Below, in pieces: positions 8,780 through 16,954 of a DNA stretch of 32,000 nucleotides. Position numbers and translations under genes: made by a program. The DNA comes from Gallaecimonas sp. GXIMD4217. GTDB lineage: Bacteria > Pseudomonadota > Gammaproteobacteria > Enterobacterales > Gallaecimonadaceae. Numbering within the stretch: the first letter of the stretch is position 1; every line of letters begins with the position of its first letter. The notes beneath the pieces are model-generated. The model saw only the letters and a list, made by a program, of their open reading frames with translations. It made no database searches and had not been told where the DNA came from. The stretch is taken from assembly GCF_038087665.1 (NCBI RefSeq), contig NZ_CP149925.1, positions 739,455-771,454 on the forward strand. Reading direction: 5' to 3'.

Positions 8780-9400
8780 TCAGTGGTGGTCGCCGTGCTC
8801 CACGAAGCCCTGCTTGATCAGCTTGCCGATCACCGGATCGCCTTCCATGTCGCCGATATCGGCGAAGTCGATCTGCTCGAAGCCCCGCCAGCGCCGCTCC
8901 AGGGCCTTGAGATCCAGCCCGGCCTGGCCGACCAGCTCCAGCCGGTAGTCGCCCTGGCTGAGGCTGGCCGGCAGCTGCCAGTCGCTGAGCCAGATCAGCT
9001 CCGCCTGGCCCTTCTGGTAGCGGCTGGCTTTCTGGCAGTGCACATCCTCGTGGCTCTCACCGGCCAGGCCCTCGAGCAGGGCCGGCGACACCGGGCTGCC
9101 CTGGGACGGCCAGTCCAGAGGCAGGCCCAGGGTGCGCAGATCGCCCTGGTAGTAGCTGAGGGTCTTGCCGGAATCCAGGAAGTGCTTGTCCAGCTCCAGG
9201 CGGCTGTTTTGGCGCTGCCAGACCTCCACCTGTTGTTGGTCGGGCCGGTAGCGGACCTTGCGATCCTCTTCCACCCACAGGTAGATGTCCTGGCTCTGGC
9301 CGTGCTGGCTGATGCGATAGTGCAGGCCGTCGGCCGGGCTCTGCAGGCAGGCCAGGGCCTGGGCGCTTAGCAGGGAAAACGACAGCAACAGGGTTTTCAT
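8780..9400 (-). CDS. Secreted hypothetical protein (206 aa), function unknown
   Basis: AGGAGA RBS 6 nt upstream of ATG 9400 and signal peptide MKTLLLSFSLLSAQALA. I recognise no family motif. The C-terminus ends HGDHH. Confidence 0.6.
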   Translation of the reverse strand: MKTLLLSFSLLSAQALACLQSPADGLHYRISQHGQSQDIYLWVEEDRKVRYRPDQQQVEVWQRQNSRLELDKHFLDSGKTLSYYQGDLRTLGLPLDWPSQGSPVSPALLEGLAGESHEDVHCQKASRYQKGQAELIWLSDWQLPASLSQGDYRLELVGQAGLDLKALERRWRGFEQIDFADIGDMEGDPVIGKLIKQGFVEHGDHH

Positions 9401-9419
9401 GGTGGCTCTCCTACAACAA

Positions 9420-9443
9420 GGCGGCAGGAGCTGTCCTGCCGCC
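9420..9443 (-). terminator. Stem-loop after alkaline phosphatase 1 (probable terminator/attenuator)
   Basis: ggcggcagga (9420-9429) pairs with tcctgccgcc (9434-9443), loop gctg. On the minus strand it is followed by TTGTTGT, a weak U tract. Confidence 0.45.
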
Positions 9444-9462
9444 CGGGGTACTGACTGGGGTC

Positions 9463-11076
9463 TTACTTGGTGGTGGCTTCGGCGCGGCCGACCAGATCGG
9501 CGGCGTGGTTCATCACGTGGAAGACCAGGCTCTGCTCGTTGGTGCCCTGCACCAGGGCGGCGCCGGGGCCGCGGGCGAACACCGCCACGTCTTCACCGGC
9601 GTGGCTCTCGCTGTCCTTGGGGATCAGCGCTTCCTGGTGGAAGTCCGGGTGCTGGACGTTGACGCCGTGCAGATCCTTGCGGCCCACGTCGATGTCCATG
9701 CCGTAGCGGTTGTCGCCGGCGCCAAACTCGGCAAAGCCCATGCCGTTGTAGTAGCCGACGGCGGTGTAGGGCATGCCGTTGGCGTCCAGGGCCGGGCCCG
9801 AGACCGGCTCGCCGCGACCGTCGTTACCCTGGACCAGGCCCAGGATGGGGTTGCCGCGGGTCGGGTAGCCGGCAATGGTCATCACGTGGCCGTGGTCGGC
9901 GGTGACGATGATCAGGGTGTCCTCGGCGCTGGTGTTGTCCATGGCCACCTTGACGGCCTCGGCCAGGGACAGGGTGTCTTCCATGGCGCGGTAGGCGTTG
10001 CCGGCGTGGTGGGCGTGGTCGATGCGACCGGCCTCGACCATCAGGAAGTAGCCCTTGTCGTTCCTGGACAGGATCTCCAGGGACTTCTTGGTCATCTCGG
10101 CCAGGGTCGGCTCGCCGGCCACGTCGTCACGGATGTCGGTGCTGTACTGCATGTGGGAGCTGTTGAACAGGCCCAGCAGGTGGTCGGTGCTGGCGGCGTC
10201 TATGGCGTCGAAGCCGGCCTTGTCCCAGACGTAGGCGGCGTTGTCGTACTTGGTGGTCCATTCGGCGGTCAGGTCACGGCCGTCGCCGCGCTTGCCGGCC
10301 TTGCCCTCGCCGTCGGTGACGGTGCTGGGGAGAAATTCGCGGCGGCCGCCGCCCAGGGCCACTTCGATGCCGTTGCCGTAGTTGAAGTCGATCAGCTGGC
10401 TGGCGATGTCCTTGCAGCCGGTCGCTTCGGCGGGCAGCTTGGTGTCGTTCTCCCAGTTGCGATCCGGGGCCACGGCATAGGTGGCGGCCGGGGTGGCGTG
10501 GGTCAGGCGGGCGGTGGACACCACGCCGGTGCTCATGCCGGCCTCTTCGGCCAGTTGCAGGGCGCTGACCAGCTCGTGGCCGGCCACGGTGCTGCAGTCG
10601 CCGCGTTCGACCGCTTCGGCCACATTGATGATGCCGGCGTCGGTCTTGACGCCGGTCATCATGGCGGTCATGGTGCCGGCGGAGTCCGGGGTCTGGGCGT
10701 CGGTGTTGTAGGTCTTGGCGAAGCCCACATAGGGCAGGGTCTCGAAGCTCAGCTTGTGCTCCTCGCCGCTGTAGCCGAGCTTCTGGCCCTCGAAGATGCG
10801 GGCGGCGGTGATGGTGGACACGCCCATGCCGTCGCCCACGAACAGGATGACGTTCTTGGCGGAGCCCTTGGCCAGCTCGGCGACCCGGGCGGCGTTGTCG
10901 GTGACCACCAGCTGGCCGTCGTTGAACCATTGGTTGGCCAGGGTGAAGTCGCCGGCGGGCTGCTCGGGCACCGTGGGCTTGTCGGGCTCGGCCGGGGTGC
11001 TGGTGGCGGTGTCGTTGTCACAGGCCGCCAGGCCCAAGACGGCGGCCATGCTCAGGGCAATGAGGTTCTTGTTCAT
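9463..11076 (-). CDS. Alkaline phosphatase (PhoA/PLAP superfamily), lipoprotein-type signal
   Basis: 537 aa. Lipobox-like MAAVLGLAAC. Motifs: FVGDGMGVSTITAARI (nucleophile Ser region), RLTHATPAATYA, GRIDHAHHAGNA, VTADHGH. Confidence 0.9.
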   Translation of the reverse strand: MNKNLIALSMAAVLGLAACDNDTATSTPAEPDKPTVPEQPAGDFTLANQWFNDGQLVVTDNAARVAELAKGSAKNVILFVGDGMGVSTITAARIFEGQKLGYSGEEHKLSFETLPYVGFAKTYNTDAQTPDSAGTMTAMMTGVKTDAGIINVAEAVERGDCSTVAGHELVSALQLAEEAGMSTGVVSTARLTHATPAATYAVAPDRNWENDTKLPAEATGCKDIASQLIDFNYGNGIEVALGGGRREFLPSTVTDGEGKAGKRGDGRDLTAEWTTKYDNAAYVWDKAGFDAIDAASTDHLLGLFNSSHMQYSTDIRDDVAGEPTLAEMTKKSLEILSRNDKGYFLMVEAGRIDHAHHAGNAYRAMEDTLSLAEAVKVAMDNTSAEDTLIIVTADHGHVMTIAGYPTRGNPILGLVQGNDGRGEPVSGPALDANGMPYTAVGYYNGMGFAEFGAGDNRYGMDIDVGRKDLHGVNVQHPDFHQEALIPKDSESHAGEDVAVFARGPGAALVQGTNEQSLVFHVMNHAADLVGRAEATTK

Positions 11077-13979: not shown

Positions 13980-14008
13980 TTGACGCGGCCTGGTGTTACG
14001 GGTAAGTT
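13980..14008 (+). promoter_or_regulatory. Sigma70-like promoter TTGACG-N17-TAAGTT with no downstream ORF
   Basis: -35 TTGACG 13980-13985, 17-nt spacer, -10 TAAGTT 14003-14008. The -35 is the right half of the perfect palindrome CGTCAA-AAAG-TTGACG (13970-13985). Confidence 0.45.
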
Positions 14009-14014
14009 AGCAGT

Positions 14015-14121
14015 CAGACCTTGGCCGAGGCGCCTTCCAAGCCGGCGACTTTCGTTAAGGTTTTCAGCAAGTAGTCGAAATCTGCCAATTCAGACCCGGG
14101 CCACTTGCCCGGGCTTTTTTT
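14015..14121 (+). ncRNA. Candidate small RNA (about 105 nt) bounded by the promoter above and an intrinsic terminator
   Basis: There is no ATG-initiated ORF. The 3' end is the hairpin cccgggc (14095-14101) / gcccggg (14107-14113) followed by C + T8. No upstream plus-strand gene exists that could use this terminator. Confidence 0.35.
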
Positions 14122-14143
14122 AACTGCCGCTATGGCGTAGAAT
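14115..14143 (+). promoter_or_regulatory. Possible ssrA promoter (-10 TAGAAT)
   Basis: TAGAAT at 14138-14143 lies 14 nt before the mature tmRNA 5' end, consistent with a short 5' leader. The -35 region is only a T-run, so this call is weak. Confidence 0.3.
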
Positions 14144-14156
14144 GGCAGTCGTACTT

Positions 14157-14517
14157 GGGGCCGATTAGGATTCGACGGGGATCACGAAACCCAAGGTGCA
14201 TGCCGAGGTGCGGTTGGCCTCGTAAAAAAACCGCAAACAAATAGTCGCAAACGACGAAAACTACGCACTCGCTGCCTAATAAGCAGTAGAGAGCCCTTCC
14301 CCCTTAGCCCGCCTGTCGGCTTTGGATCAGGAAGGTCAAACCTGACAGGATCGCGTGGCGGCTTTGCCTGGAGCCAAAGCGTTAAAACCAATCAGGCTCG
14401 CTGCTTGATAGCCTGCCCCTCGGCGCTCAACGCAGTTAACTAAAAGAGACGGCTAAGCATGTAGTACCGACGGCGTAGGGTCAACGGACGGGGGTTCAAA
14501 TCCCCCCGGCTCCACCA
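14157..14517 (+). ncRNA. ssrA: tmRNA (SsrA), one-piece; tag reading frame ANDENYALAA
   Basis: 5' end GGGGCCGATTAGGATTCGACGGGG and 3' end GGGGGTTCAAATCCCCCCGGCTCCACCA (tRNA-like domain ending in CCA). Resume codon and tag GCAAACGACGAAAACTACGCACTCGCTGCCTAA at 14247-14279. Colinear with my recollection of E. coli ssrA. Confidence 0.97.
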
Positions 14518-14520
14518 AAC

Positions 14521-14562
14521 GCAAACAAAAACGCCTCCCAACCGGGAGGCGTTTTTGTTTGC
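14521..14562 (+). terminator. ssrA rho-independent terminator
   Basis: Perfect 19-bp stem gcaaacaaaaacgcctccc (14521-14539) / gggaggcgtttttgtttgc (14544-14562), loop aacc, with a T-run inside the descending arm. Confidence 0.85.
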
Positions 14563-14721
14563 GCTAGACGGTGAGCCCGGTGGGTGCCGAACCCCCTCGG
14601 GGTCACAAAATGGCAGGACAGCCATTTTGGAGCGCCGCAGGCGACCCCGTAGGGGCGAGGACCAGGGAAGGTCCGAGTCAAATCCCCCGGCGGTTGGCTT
14701 TCTCCGAAAAGTGACATACCT

Positions 14722-14825
14722 ATGGGTTCACCGGTTTGCCGGGAGCAAACCGGAACGGCCGCAGGCCGGCCCCGAGCGTAGCGAGCGGGTGAGGCGCAGG
14801 GACGCGCCGAATAAACCCCCCCCGG
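14722..14825 (+). repeat. Near-identical repeat copy 1 (core of U2)
   Basis: 104 nt. It matches 14903-15005 apart from two substitutions (T/C at 14779 versus 14960; C/T just after aataaa, 14816 versus 14997) and one C-run indel. Period 181 bp. Confidence 0.9.
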
Positions 14826-14902
14826 CGTATTTCATTCCCGATCTTGGGTGGCTTTTGTCGTTTTTGGCCTTTGACGAAGAGCCCGGCGGGTGCCGAACCC
14901 CC

Positions 14903-15005
14903 ATGGGTTCACCGGTTTGCCGGGAGCAAACCGGAACGGCCGCAGGCCGGCCCCGAGCGCAGCGAGCGGGTGAGGCGCAGGGACGCGCCGAATAAATCCC
15001 CCCGG
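14903..15005 (+). repeat. Near-identical repeat copy 2 (core of U3)
   Basis: See copy 1. Here it is preceded by module A (14879-14902), which otherwise occurs only at 14573-14596 (23/24 identical). Confidence 0.9.
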
Positions 15006-15153
15006 TGAGTGGCTTCCTCCTTTTTCCGACAATTCACATAATCCCCATGGGCTCACCAATCGGCAGGATAACCGATTGGCATATTGCGCAGAATAAGTGC
15101 CAGAGATAGCGCCACTGAACGTCCCTATTTCCTGATATCGAACGCCAATGCTG

Positions 15154-16053
15154 CTATAGCTGGTGTACCCAAAGGTCTTCACTGACGATCGCCAGCGGCC
15201 TACCATGTTTTTCCCGGTAATCAACAGCCTTTAAGATTTTGTTTCCGAAGGTAGTGTGACGCCAGTCCCTCGAGCCGTGCAGCCCTACGACCAAGTAGTC
15301 CAAGTCGCGTTTTATCCCTGTCATTATGGTGCCACCGCGAAGGCGTACGGCTTCCTCGCACTTTGATCTGGTGCCAAACTGGAATCGTCCGGTAAAGCAA
15401 AAAGCGGTGCCGTTAAAGTCCAACTCGGCGTCATGATCCAGCGGCATACCGCTTGAGAGCCCAGAGACGGCACCGTGTTCCATTGGATTTCCGGTCAGGT
15501 CCTCCAGCATGAGGGTCAATGTACTGCGCTCGTCCTCGGTGATGACACCATCGGCGAGAATCATGCGTAAGGTACTGGCCAGCTCACTGCCTGGCCAGCG
15601 CTGGCAAGCTGCCGGATTCATCCTGAACCAGCGATCTAAGGCCCGGATCTCCTGATCGTTGACGATGCCGTCTGCCAATATGCCGCAGGCAATGCCTACC
15701 AGCTCATCCACTTGGTGTTCGTCGCATCCCAACTCAACATCCAGCCAAACGGGGTTCTCGGCAATGGCAGTGCATAGGTAAAGTAGCTCACTTCGTTCCT
15801 CATCATCGATAACCCTGTCTGAGACAATGTTATCGATGCGCTCGGCTACACAGGCGGTTGTCTTATGGTTTCGAATGGCCCAGGCATCGGCGAGCCAAGT
15901 GGTGAGGTAAGCGAGTTCGGCATTGTTGAGCTTCTTATCAGCTGTAATACCTTTTAGAAGACCTTTCAGTGTATCGAACGCCTTGCGACGGTTATTTCGG
16001 AAGTTGATACCAAAGCTGCTCGGTTGACCATGCGGGTTCAACTCGATGTTCAT
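15154..16053 (-). CDS. Uncharacterised protein: two TerB-like helical repeat domains + C-terminal BRCT domain (299 aa)
   Basis: ATG 16053 has a perfect GGAGG 5 nt upstream. Four amphipathic segments of the TerB type: ITADKKLNNAELAYL, VSDRVIDDEERSELL, ILADGIVNDQEIRAL, ILADGVITEDERSTL. C-terminal BRCT as in the LigA C-terminus: FCFTGRFQFGTRSKCEEAVRLRGGTIMTGIKRDLDYLVVG ... W. GC is visibly lower than in the flanks. Confidence 0.8.
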   Translation of the reverse strand: MNIELNPHGQPSSFGINFRNNRRKAFDTLKGLLKGITADKKLNNAELAYLTTWLADAWAIRNHKTTACVAERIDNIVSDRVIDDEERSELLYLCTAIAENPVWLDVELGCDEHQVDELVGIACGILADGIVNDQEIRALDRWFRMNPAACQRWPGSELASTLRMILADGVITEDERSTLTLMLEDLTGNPMEHGAVSGLSSGMPLDHDAELDFNGTAFCFTGRFQFGTRSKCEEAVRLRGGTIMTGIKRDLDYLVVGLHGSRDWRHTTFGNKILKAVDYREKHGRPLAIVSEDLWVHQL

Positions 16054-16152
16054 GTGGACCTCCATGTCACTGATAATTGGGCACAAGACTAAAAGTGGTT
16101 CTTGGAGACGTCTTTCGCAAGCCAAGGGTGGATGGCCTCTAATCCTGGTTGT

Positions 16153-16192
16153 TTGACAAAGCATTGACAGCAGCAACCCTTGAGGCTTAGCT
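16153..16192 (+). promoter_or_regulatory. Possible promoter of the NRDE gene: tandem TTGACA hexamers, weak -10
   Basis: TTGACA occurs at 16153-16158 and 16164-16169. After a 17-nt spacer comes TTAGCT (16187-16192). The ATG lies 7 nt after the -10 and has no SD. Confidence 0.3.
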
Positions 16193-16198
16193 GACCCC

Positions 16199-16954
16199 AT
16201 GTGCACCGTCGTGATCCTGCGCCGGCCCGGCCATGATTGGCCGGTGCTGCTCGGCGCCAACAGAGACGAGATGGCCGACCGCCCCTGGCGGCCGCCGGGG
16301 CGGCATTGGCCCGGGCTGCCGGGCGTGACCGCCGGCCTGGATGTGCTGGGCGGCGGTACCTGGCTCGGGCTCAACGACCAGGGCCTGGTGGCCACTGTGC
16401 TGAACCGGCCCGGCTCCCTGGGGCCGGCCAGGGGCAAGCGCTCCCGGGGCGAGCTGCCGCTGAAGGCCCTGGCCCATGACAGCGCCGACGCTGCCGTCCG
16501 GGCTCTTACGGCCCTCGACGGCGGCGGCTATCGGCCCTTCAACCTGCTGCTGGCCGACCGCCATGGCGCCTACTGGCTCAGGGGCCTGGGCCAGGGGGCC
16601 ATCAAGGCCCGGGCCGTGCCGGAGGGCCTGTCCATGCTGACCGCCCATGACCTCAACGACGTCGAGAACAGCCCCCGCCTGGCCGCCAACCTGCCGCGCT
16701 TTCGGGCCGCGCCCGTGCCGGAGCCTGGCCGGGGCGACTGGCGGGCCTGGCAGGGGCTGCTGGCCGAACCGGGCCGGCTGCCGCCGGATCCGGCTCGCTT
16801 TCACATCAGGCCGGACGCGATGCAGGTGACCAGCTCGGTGGGCTTCGGCACCCTCTGCTCGGCGCTCATTGCCCTGCCGGCCACCGGCAAGCCGCTCTGG
16901 CTCAATGCCGACGGTCCGCCGGACAGCAGCCCTTTCCAGGCGGTGCCGTCCTAA
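16199..16954 (+). CDS. NRDE-family protein (DUF833 / TANGO2-like)
   Basis: 251 aa. N-terminal MCT (Cys2) and the hallmark GANRDE motif (LLGANRDEMADRPW). GGTWLGLN. Confidence 0.85.
   Translation: MCTVVILRRPGHDWPVLLGANRDEMADRPWRPPGRHWPGLPGVTAGLDVLGGGTWLGLNDQGLVATVLNRPGSLGPARGKRSRGELPLKALAHDSADAAVRALTALDGGGYRPFNLLLADRHGAYWLRGLGQGAIKARAVPEGLSMLTAHDLNDVENSPRLAANLPRFRAAPVPEPGRGDWRAWQGLLAEPGRLPPDPARFHIRPDAMQVTSSVGFGTLCSALIALPATGKPLWLNADGPPDSSPFQAVPS

Follow-up and report, generated by a model that had tools for sequence, protein, structure and literature searches.

A covarying multi-hairpin repeat array downstream of ssrA in Gallaecimonas and its probable relation to tRNA-linked RtT repeats

Four multi-hairpin units downstream of ssrA

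In a 32,000-nucleotide stretch of the genome of Gallaecimonas sp. GXIMD4217 (contig NZ_CP149925.1, positions 739,455 to 771,454; hereafter, the window), ssrA, the gene for transfer-messenger RNA (tmRNA), is followed by an intrinsic terminator and by a 590-bp spacer that extends from 14564 to the stop of a minus-strand gene (15154). The spacer contains an array of four related units, U1 to U4, at 14564-15135 on the plus strand, 3' of the ssrA terminator and co-oriented with ssrA, with unit periods of 134-181 nt (Table 1). The units form perfect hairpins, in which the stem differences are fully compensated. An earlier reading made from the letters of the window alone (hereafter, the sequence-only reading) had listed hairpins at 14606-14629, 14731-14753 (repeated at 14912-14934), 15057-15079, 14633-14643, 14756-14768, 14659-14674 and 14793-14808, all of which were recovered at these positions. 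The same reading took the units for paralogs, and one covariance model, R2, indeed puts all four, on the plus strand, in one family; U1 belonged to the training set of R2, and U2, U3 and U4 did not. Within the window, the unit motifs are confined to the array, with 2 matches to GAGCCCGGYGGGTGCCGAACCCCC against 0.00 expected.

Table 1. The ssrA locus and the repeat array in the window; E-values, here and in the text, are rough
Feature	Position	Strand	Basis or remark
ssrA (tmRNA, tag ANDENYALAA)	14157-14517	+	ARAGORN; Rfam, 240.6 bits
ssrA intrinsic terminator (term0)	14520-14563	+	perfect 20-bp palindromic stem, T-run within the stem
U1 (type I, allele 'aaaatggc')	14564-14705	+	repeat analysis; covariance model, 68.4 bits
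U2 (type II)	14706-14860	+	covariance model, 31.6 bits, E 2e-7
U3	14861-15020	+	covariance model, 32.7 bits, E 1e-7
U4 (decayed type I, allele 'ccaatcgg')	15021-15135	+	covariance model, 19.3 bits, E 2e-4
TerB/BRCT-like gene, 299 aa	15154-16053	-	context only, outside the element; sub-threshold domain matches

The 5' module of U1 (14564-14606) starts with GGTGAGCCCGG, which on direct reading is the complement of the ssrA 3' strand CCGGCTCCACC, and continues with the hairpin ACCCC-CTC-GGGGT and TCAC; the cassette core of this unit spans 14597-14683, and a pseudo T-loop with the 3' end, TCAAATCCCCCGGCGG, is located at 14678-14693. In U2, a short 5' module precedes a core (14722-14817) with GAGCGTAGCGAGC inserted in the CCCC/GGG hairpin, and the pseudo 3' end is TAAACCCCCCCCGG. 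U3 combines a type-I-like 5' module, with 79% identity to that of U1, with a type II core (14903-14998) and the pseudo 3' end ATAAATCCCCCCGG at 14992-15005. The core common to U2 and U3 encompasses 104 nt with 97% identity, at a period of 181 bp; the sequence-only reading considered this a recent duplication, and, on the same evidence, U3 appears to be either a recent 181-bp duplication or a recombinant. In U4 (core 15047-15121), hpA is the sole intact hairpin, and a resemblance to the ssrA 3' end is seen in its 5' flank, TTCACATAATCCCCATGGGCTCACCA.

The template that the unit ends imitate is the 3' T-arm and acceptor of ssrA, GGGGGTTCAAATCCCCCCGGCTCCACCA. Allowing for up to two mismatches, the ssrA segment TCAAATCCCCCCGG is found again at 14678 (TCAAATCCCCCGGC) and at 14992 (the pseudo 3' end of U3), that is, 3 sites against 0.37 expected. 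The repeat finder pairs the tmRNA 3' end (14499-14521) with 14590-14612 and 15040-15062 and, in the inverted orientation, 14490-14516 with 14570-14596, and the a-module of type II, ...GTAGGGGGTTCA, on direct reading resembles an internally deleted version of ssrA ...GTAGGG[..]GGGTTCA. In the window, the unit 3' ends have a decayed acceptor and CCA part, and a copy of the ssrA 3' end from the T-loop onward is still present; ARAGORN detected no tRNA or tmRNA pseudogene among the units.

Cassette architecture, T-loop placement and covariation

The core of the units is a cassette of about 85-95 nt with four hairpins in the order TCAC-hpA-hpB-CCCC(GNA)GGGG-CGAG-hpC-CGAG and a short closing helix after hpA. 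The CCCC-GNA-GGGG hairpin is invariant, and hpC is bracketed by CGAG/CGAG, with the potential to form tandem G.A pairs. Within a unit, the T-stem 5' half is followed by the cassette and then by TCAAAT-CCCCC-GGC..., such that the cassette appears to divide the T-loop between T and TCAAAT. Judged by sequence, each unit can be described as an internally deleted copy of the tmRNA top half. Parts that apparently remain are a 5' segment with complementarity to the 3' strand of the acceptor, both strands of the T-stem, the T-loop and the acceptor 3' strand. The sequence-only reading had not noticed that a copy of the tmRNA T-arm and 3' end underlies each unit and that its T-loop houses the cassette.

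A cassette pattern derived from the architecture that the units have in common with the Rfam family RF02902 (see below) yielded 43 metagenome loci. The metagenome cassettes adjoin tRNA-Met(CAT), tRNA-Pro(CGG) or another tmRNA, and are almost always co-oriented with it; the orientation relative to the adjacent tRNA or tmRNA is fixed in 16 of the 17 close pairs. The type A layout, which includes Gallaecimonas, consists of the intact gene, a terminator, a short spacer and a hairpin of the form T-stem 3'-like-GNA-T-stem 5', followed by TCAC, the cassette, CGAG and TCAAWT with the T-stem 3' and acceptor 3' strands of the local gene and CCA, often with a second terminator at the end of the unit. At one type A locus (L017), the unit end tccattcccaccacctccacca differs from the corresponding end of its own tmRNA, ttcgattcccaccacctccacca, by one mismatch in 22 nt. 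In type B, the cassette is fused directly to a tRNA-Met copy of which the 5' part, as far as GGTGGT, is present; on the 3' side follow TCAATTCCACC, a decayed acceptor strand and then the next intact tRNA-Met. Metagenome tRNA-Met arrays with a cassette-interrupted T-loop were recorded at L015, L020, L023, L043, L049, L050 and L032; in all of them, decay has affected the acceptor 3' strand but not the 5' part of the tRNA-Met copy, and an intact tRNA-Met follows directly downstream.

The five bases on each side of the cassette covary with the neighbouring gene: the flanks are GGTGG...CCACC for tRNA-Met, GGAGG...CCTCC for tRNA-Pro, GTGGG...CCCAC for the tmRNA of L017, GGGGG...CCCCC for the Gallaecimonas tmRNA and AAGG...CCTT for E. 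coli tRNA-Tyr. Every cassette beside a tRNA or tmRNA gene is thus flanked by both halves of that gene's own T-stem, which argues that the cassette sits inside the T-loop and that the units are internally deleted tRNA or tmRNA top halves. Our literature search found no paper describing T-loop insertion of this cassette. The cassette also occurs in other arrangements, namely, as cassette-only tandem repeats of two cassettes with a 75-nt period (L032, L050), in three-unit arrays after tRNA-Pro (L052) and, in soil-type copies, in ordinary spacers between convergent genes, such as greA and a yhbY-like gene, without tRNA linkage. An extra mini-hairpin, formed by a motif of about 12 nt, GAGCGYAGCGAG, that can pair with tandem G.A, is seen in varied cassette loops and acts like a module inside a module; it is located in the CCCC/GGG hairpin of type II units (14771-14783 and 14952-14964 in the window), in the hpB loop of several metagenome copies and at the hpA position in E. 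coli RtT (L056), and was also recorded in L016, L022, L026, L052 and L053.

Covariation was assessed in a covariance-model-based alignment of 48 distinct sequences, which was used instead of MAFFT alignments of the units that misaligned hpB and hpC. In this alignment, 95.0% of the cells are paired, compared to 77.6% in shuffles; 20 of the 27 pairs show changes on both sides, and double changes are found in 184 cells against 46.7 expected. None of the 500 shuffles reached the observed values, and slid controls pair at no more than 54%. The strongest covariation is found in hpB, hpC, the inner hpA and the short closing helix, which were not constrained by the retrieval pattern. In five whole Gallaecimonas type I units, RNAalifold identified 10 pairs with compensated changes, and orthologue pairs within the genus differ in hpB and hpC by double changes from A-T to G-C, every stem change being compensated. 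Preservation of structure under sequence drift, which the sequence-only reading proposed from the four units, therefore holds both across the 48 homologues and within orthologues. The folding energy of the whole region is unexceptional (z of -1.3 on the plus strand and -0.5 on the minus strand), and among single units, U1 alone stands out (-3.1 and -4.0, respectively); the structural evidence is thus comparative covariation and not folding energy.

The array in other Gallaecimonas species and its relatives elsewhere

The ssrA loci of four other species were obtained via the orthologues of the ssrA-adjacent cytochrome c' gene. Three of them (G. xiamenensis, G. mangrovi and G. kandeliae) have a unit of each type behind the ssrA terminator, first type I and then type II, both co-oriented with ssrA. 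In the fourth, G. pentaromativorans, an island of 8 kb with an integrase has integrated at the ssrA 3' end, and on its far side come the displaced ssrA end, the terminator and a type II unit. The placement and orientation of the units after ssrA are accordingly conserved across these species, and of the two possibilities left by the sequence-only reading, that of plus-strand units after ssrA is borne out. The unit ends of the relatives are clearer copies of the ssrA end (...tcaaatccccccagctcggcc); in G. xiamenensis, the unit end gagtcaaatccccccagctcggcc is followed by a terminator-like hairpin. The gene beyond the units differs in every species: WYL with CRISPR-Cas I-E, TetR, genes without known function and, in the window, the TerB/BRCT-like gene. 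A comparison of G. xiamenensis with G. mangrovi gave identities of 97.5% for ssrA and 98.8% for the terminator with the 5' module, as against only 67% for the type I core. The allele of the decayed U4 is the one that lies beside ssrA in G. mangrovi and G. kandeliae, so that both type I core alleles coexist in the window. Evidently, the units undergo recombination and cassette-like exchange.

Several of these loci show further rearrangements. The G. pentaromativorans island (L007, 1935-2010 / 9480-9530; about 8 kb) encodes a 651-aa phage-type integrase, a resolvase, BrxR/WYL and DUF2787 and has the last ~13 nt of ssrA (cccggctccacca) as a direct repeat at its two ends, with the original terminator and the type II unit beyond attR. 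At a distance of 3.7 kb from its ssrA array, G. kandeliae has another, partial array in inverted orientation (L009, 5468-5660 on the plus strand versus 9250-9460 on the minus strand), which holds a further copy of unit II and the beginning of a unit whose hpA allele is 'aaaatggcaggacagc'. The two arrays face each other across a segment that encodes a protein with an AHH nuclease domain and unassigned genes, and the unit II nearest to ssrA is truncated. The arrangement suggests an inversion, or an insertion, whose breakpoints fell within units. In a metagenome-assembled genome whose cytochrome c' is 84% identical (L011, 1-100), the sequence directly after the ssrA CCA has no relation to the terminator or to the units found in the other species, which suggests another insertion at ssrA. 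In G. xiamenensis (L005, 1-8533), a type I-E CRISPR-Cas operon and a WYL/BrxR regulator, that is, defence-type cargo, lie directly beyond the array. A scan of genome contigs with a 21-mer specific for U1 and U3 produced only 4 chance matches, in Actinobacteria; two pattern scans of viral contigs produced no matches, and neither did BLASTN against phages and plasmids.

E. coli K-12 shows the same design: the 178-bp repeats distal to tyrT-tyrV each end with AATCCTTCCCCCACCACCA, the 3' end of tRNA-Tyr, preceded by ...CCAAGGTTCGA / CTCGAGCGCCAGCGAGAG AG CGTTGCC-GCA-GGCAACG A CCC-GAA-GGG CGAAG-CGC-GCA-GCG-CTGAG / T. The Rfam RtT model (RF00391) covers these repeats at 134-138 bits. Model R2 was built from 54 cassette matches without RtT and without U2-U4. 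With scores of 22.7-23.6 bits (E ~0.002 in 116 kb), it matches each of the three E. coli RtT repeats in register, and type II units of the relatives score 22-26 bits; in the alignment of RtT with the cassette, hpB, CCC-GAA-GGG and hpC correspond. By these sequence measures, the cassette is significantly related to the tyrT-distal RtT/rttR repeats. The annotated end of the E. coli small RNA rttR, 1287066, lies exactly 178 nt past the tyrV 3' end, at the CCA of the first pseudo-tRNA end. RtT RNA has been described as released from tRNA operon transcripts, and RNAs of the RtT family encoded beside tRNA genes gave Northern signals in A. pleuropneumoniae (PMC4986893).

The organization is similar as well. 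In both cases, tandem units lie directly distal to a tRNA-type gene and are co-oriented with it; each unit ends with the T-loop 3' half, T-stem and acceptor strand of the adjacent gene (and, in RtT, also the CCA); and, as in the design of the window units, the T-stem 5' half of RtT (AAGGTTCGA) precedes hpB, CCC-GAA-GGG and CGAAG-stem-GCA-stem-CTGAG. An arginine-rich, spurious-looking open reading frame (ORF) is present in both, tpr in E. coli RtT and 14555-14995 in the window. The two differ in the host gene, which is a tRNA gene for RtT and ssrA here, and the window array further stands apart by the strong terminator between the gene and the units, the long, perfect hpA hairpin and the decay of the pseudo 3' ends. 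The array is, then, an ssrA-linked variant of the RtT-type tRNA-linked repeats, a known kind of element for which the ssrA linkage is new.

At gathering thresholds, Rfam detects only tmRNA over the array region. RF02902 (AaHKsRNA22) is the one full-length match of the units at relaxed thresholds (U1, 22.3 bits; 23.8 bits, also full length, for the G. xiamenensis orthologue of U1), and the order of its helices, GGUCAC, hpA, hpB, CCCC-NNA-GGGG and CGAG-hpC-CGAG, matches that of the units throughout the length of the model. Among the 20 metagenome loci scanned, 3 exceed the RF02902 gathering threshold (85.2, 48.5 and 40.7 bits), and these loci (L019, L038, L041) were also found by models R1 and R2. 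Because such intermediates pass the threshold, the Gallaecimonas units are diverged members of the same cassette family. RF02902 originates from an RNA-seq catalogue of small RNAs of Aggregatibacter (PMC5909427); its Pasteurellaceae copies, unlike the window units, are located after an uptake-signal terminator and not in a T-loop.

Model R1, which scores non-seed Gallaecimonas units at 45 bits, matches the E. coli ERIC insert at 29.9 bits. Several enterobacterial copies of the cassette lie within or beside ERIC sequence, and in the ERIC element between E. coli pepB and iscX (L055, 1527-1600), the cassette is an internal insert of ~70 bp. By BLASTN, this insert is present in 437 of the 5426 complete E. 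coli genomes, always in a single copy, that is, as a presence/absence polymorphism. In ERIC, the cassette is an insert in the ERIC scaffold, whereas the scaffold in the window is the T-arm copy of tmRNA; the window region contains no ERIC sequence, and the arms GTGAATCCCCAGGAGCTTACAT...AAGTAAGTGACTGGGGTGAGCG are found only in the enterobacterial copies. Taken together, the sequence similarities show that the cassette, RF02902 and the internal insert of ERIC are one family. Internal insertions of ~70 bp in some ERIC elements were reportedly described by Sharp in 1997 and by Wilson and Sharp in 2006, and we take the insert found here to be this known insertion. The sequence-only reading allowed for the possibility that the units were merely the ends of a known mobile element, and this applies only to the cassette, in its identity with the ERIC insert; the statement of that reading that the fold belongs to no recognizable family does not stand, given the diverged RF02902-type cassette, the RtT architecture and the match of R2 to RtT. 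The title 'Insertions within ERIC' is cited in PMC3696847.

Proposed origin and alternative explanations

We consider it fairly probable that tRNA-linked repeats of the RtT type, here linked to ssrA, make up the spacer; each unit would be an internally deleted tmRNA top half with a cassette in the T-loop. The array could have originated by duplication of an ssrA 3' fragment downstream of the gene, with the cassette entering, or arriving with, the T-loop of the duplicate, after which recombination, unequal or homologous, among the repeated ssrA-like segments would have multiplied and shuffled the units; U2/U3 would then be the latest recombination event, and U4 the oldest, decayed copy. The analogy with E. 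coli RttR makes it probable that the units are transcribed along with ssrA or after it; the RNA would fold into a domain of several hairpins, which the tRNA-like stem closes. The hairpins are probably kept since the folded single strand is recognised, either in processing and stability or in the propagation of the cassette itself. RtT has been linked to amino-acid starvation responses only loosely.

Several observations weigh against this interpretation. The alignment that shows covariation was fitted to the model, and the retrieval pattern fixed the outer hpA and the CCCC/GGGG hairpin for most of the sequences. There is no RF00391 match at E<=10 in 14518-15160 (the gathering threshold is 45 bits), and the window units, at ~22 bits, fall under the RF02902 gathering threshold of 39.8. 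Given the strong terminator between ssrA and the units, transcription of the units here would need read-through, and a promoter and terminator scan of 14000-16300 revealed no sigma-70-like promoter. The pseudo 3' ends are decayed and lack CCA, and therefore, RttR-like processing may not occur here. In the alignment, G.U cells (16) are no commoner than A.C cells (13), and most triloops are C(GNA)G, which forms very stable hairpins in DNA; together, these features suit DNA hairpins equally well as, or better than, an RNA from one strand.

The last point leads to the possibility, which we consider unlikely, that the array is a purely DNA-level non-autonomous element similar to REP or MITE, in which the hairpins act as folded single-stranded DNA and the RNA is incidental. 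Apart from the absence of a G.U excess over A.C and the triloops, such an element would account for the near-perfect palindromes, the terminators between units, the polymorphism of the ERIC insert, the cassette-only tandems and dispersed intergenic copies, and the replacement of alleles at a fixed site. The orientation fixed relative to the tRNA or tmRNA gene, the accumulation of relatives as stable RNAs and the in situ compensatory changes between orthologues speak against it; together with the CGAG/CGAG brackets and the multi-helix closure, the fixed orientation and the expressed relatives favour the RNA form. The cassette also has no terminal inverted repeats, only an ambiguous TCA at both junctions, and no associated transposase. 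The array resembles REP/BIME in being intergenic, 3' of a gene and defined by structure but lacks the GTAG head and inverted REP pairs; REP/BIME and CRISPR were rejected as identities, and so was an integron attC site, as no RYYYAAC/GTTRRRY ends are visible. The DNA-level explanation overlaps the RtT-type interpretation and differs from it only in the molecule that is under selection. A quite unlikely explanation is that the units are scars of integrative-element traffic at ssrA, that is, attR remnants or stubs of deleted islands, and that the hairpins themselves are unconstrained. Within the genus, ssrA serves as an active hot spot of integration, as attested by the integrase island of G. pentaromativorans bounded by the ssrA-end repeat, the foreign sequence directly after CCA in the related metagenome-assembled genome and the cargo that differs in every species; moreover, the units contain ssrA 3'-like segments, and the most distal unit is the oldest and most decayed. 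Genomic-island traffic at ssrA is reportedly described by Williams ('Traffic at the tmRNA gene'), and repeated partial ssrA 3' ends with variable downstream cargo are a likeness to such traffic. However, unlike island ends, the window units carry a conserved cassette with covarying helices; the ssrA-like segments are each split by the cassette, which they flank as two T-arm halves and not as simple direct repeats; the same cassette is found in ERICs, greA-yhbY spacers and tRNA arrays without any island; the true island of G. pentaromativorans lies outside the unit and has unrelated ends; and BLASTN gave no match in phages or plasmids. The window itself encodes no integrase. Integration traffic may nevertheless have been the source of the first ssrA 3' duplicate.

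We find it very unlikely that the array is a small RNA of RtT-like modules that titrates CsrA/RsmA in the manner of CsrB/RsmZ, with GGA loops binding CsrA dimers. Like CsrB/RsmZ, the array contains many short hairpins with GGA loops, 7 such loops in ~570 nt, among them the hpA loops AGGACA and CCGGGAG and the hpC loops CAGGGAAG and CAGGGACG. Throughout the family, GGA co-occurs in hpA and hpC loops (both in 15 sequences, hpC alone in 0), and the hpC loops of the GGA subfamily are CAGGATG, CAGGGAYG or CATGGATG, which we take to resemble the CsrA consensus. These counts are not independent because the copies are homologous; furthermore, the tRNA-Met-linked subfamily has no GGA in either hpA or hpC loop, E. 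coli RtT also lacks GGA loops, no Csr or Rsm Rfam model matches at E<=10, and the strong upstream terminator is not accompanied by a promoter in the scanned region or by a GacA/UvrY box. GGA loops in the window were recorded at 14615-14620, 14664-14669, 14739-14745 and 14798-14803. Finally, the other possibility raised in the sequence-only reading, a structured 3' untranslated region of the minus-strand TerB/BRCT-like gene, has a negligible probability: it draws on adjacency to the stop at 15154, in this genome only, whereas in four other species, the units are tied to and co-oriented with ssrA and are next to WYL/CRISPR-Cas, TetR or an unassigned gene. As the downstream gene differs in every species and the units stay with ssrA, this reading is refuted; the TerB/BRCT-like gene is low-GC cargo.

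Taken by itself, the result for the window, a conserved repeat array at an integration hot spot, is modest. As far as we could find, RtT/rttR, RF02902, the ERIC insert and the repeats that lie, without annotation, next to tRNA-Met, tRNA-Pro or tmRNA genes of many bacteria have not been connected before; these four share one four-hairpin cassette, typically inside a T-loop. This connection provides a structural rationale for the tRNA 3' ends in tRNA-linked repeats and a testable model of RtT biogenesis, and it alerts annotators that 'novel structured RNAs' beside ssrA may belong to this repeat family. A broader conjecture, about which we are doubtful, is that the core common to RF02902, RtT and the ERIC insert is one very widespread, structure-defined, non-autonomous element that targets hairpin loops, above all, the T-loops of tRNA and tmRNA gene copies, and uses the top half, with its acceptor stem, T-stem and CCA, as a scaffold for processing and stability, with the GGA-loop subfamily perhaps binding CsrA/RsmA. 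If it exists, such a hairpin-loop-targeting element has not been described as such before.

As for the surroundings of the array, the terminator part of the Phe_leader model matches the ssrA terminator in the relaxed Rfam scan. The TerB/BRCT-like gene is variable cargo beside the ssrA hot spot, with a GC content of ~50% compared to 65-75% in the flanks and sub-threshold matches to TerB (19.0 bits) and BRCT (18.6 bits). The arginine-rich ORF at 14555-14995 (146 aa, plus strand) runs through U1-U3 and recalls the 'protamine-like' tpr ORF within the E. coli RtT repeat; as a coding gene, it is probably spurious because the hairpins that it spans covary. The 427-aa mechanical ORF at 15154-16437 on the minus strand is over-extended, the likely start being at 16053, with an ATG after GGAGG.

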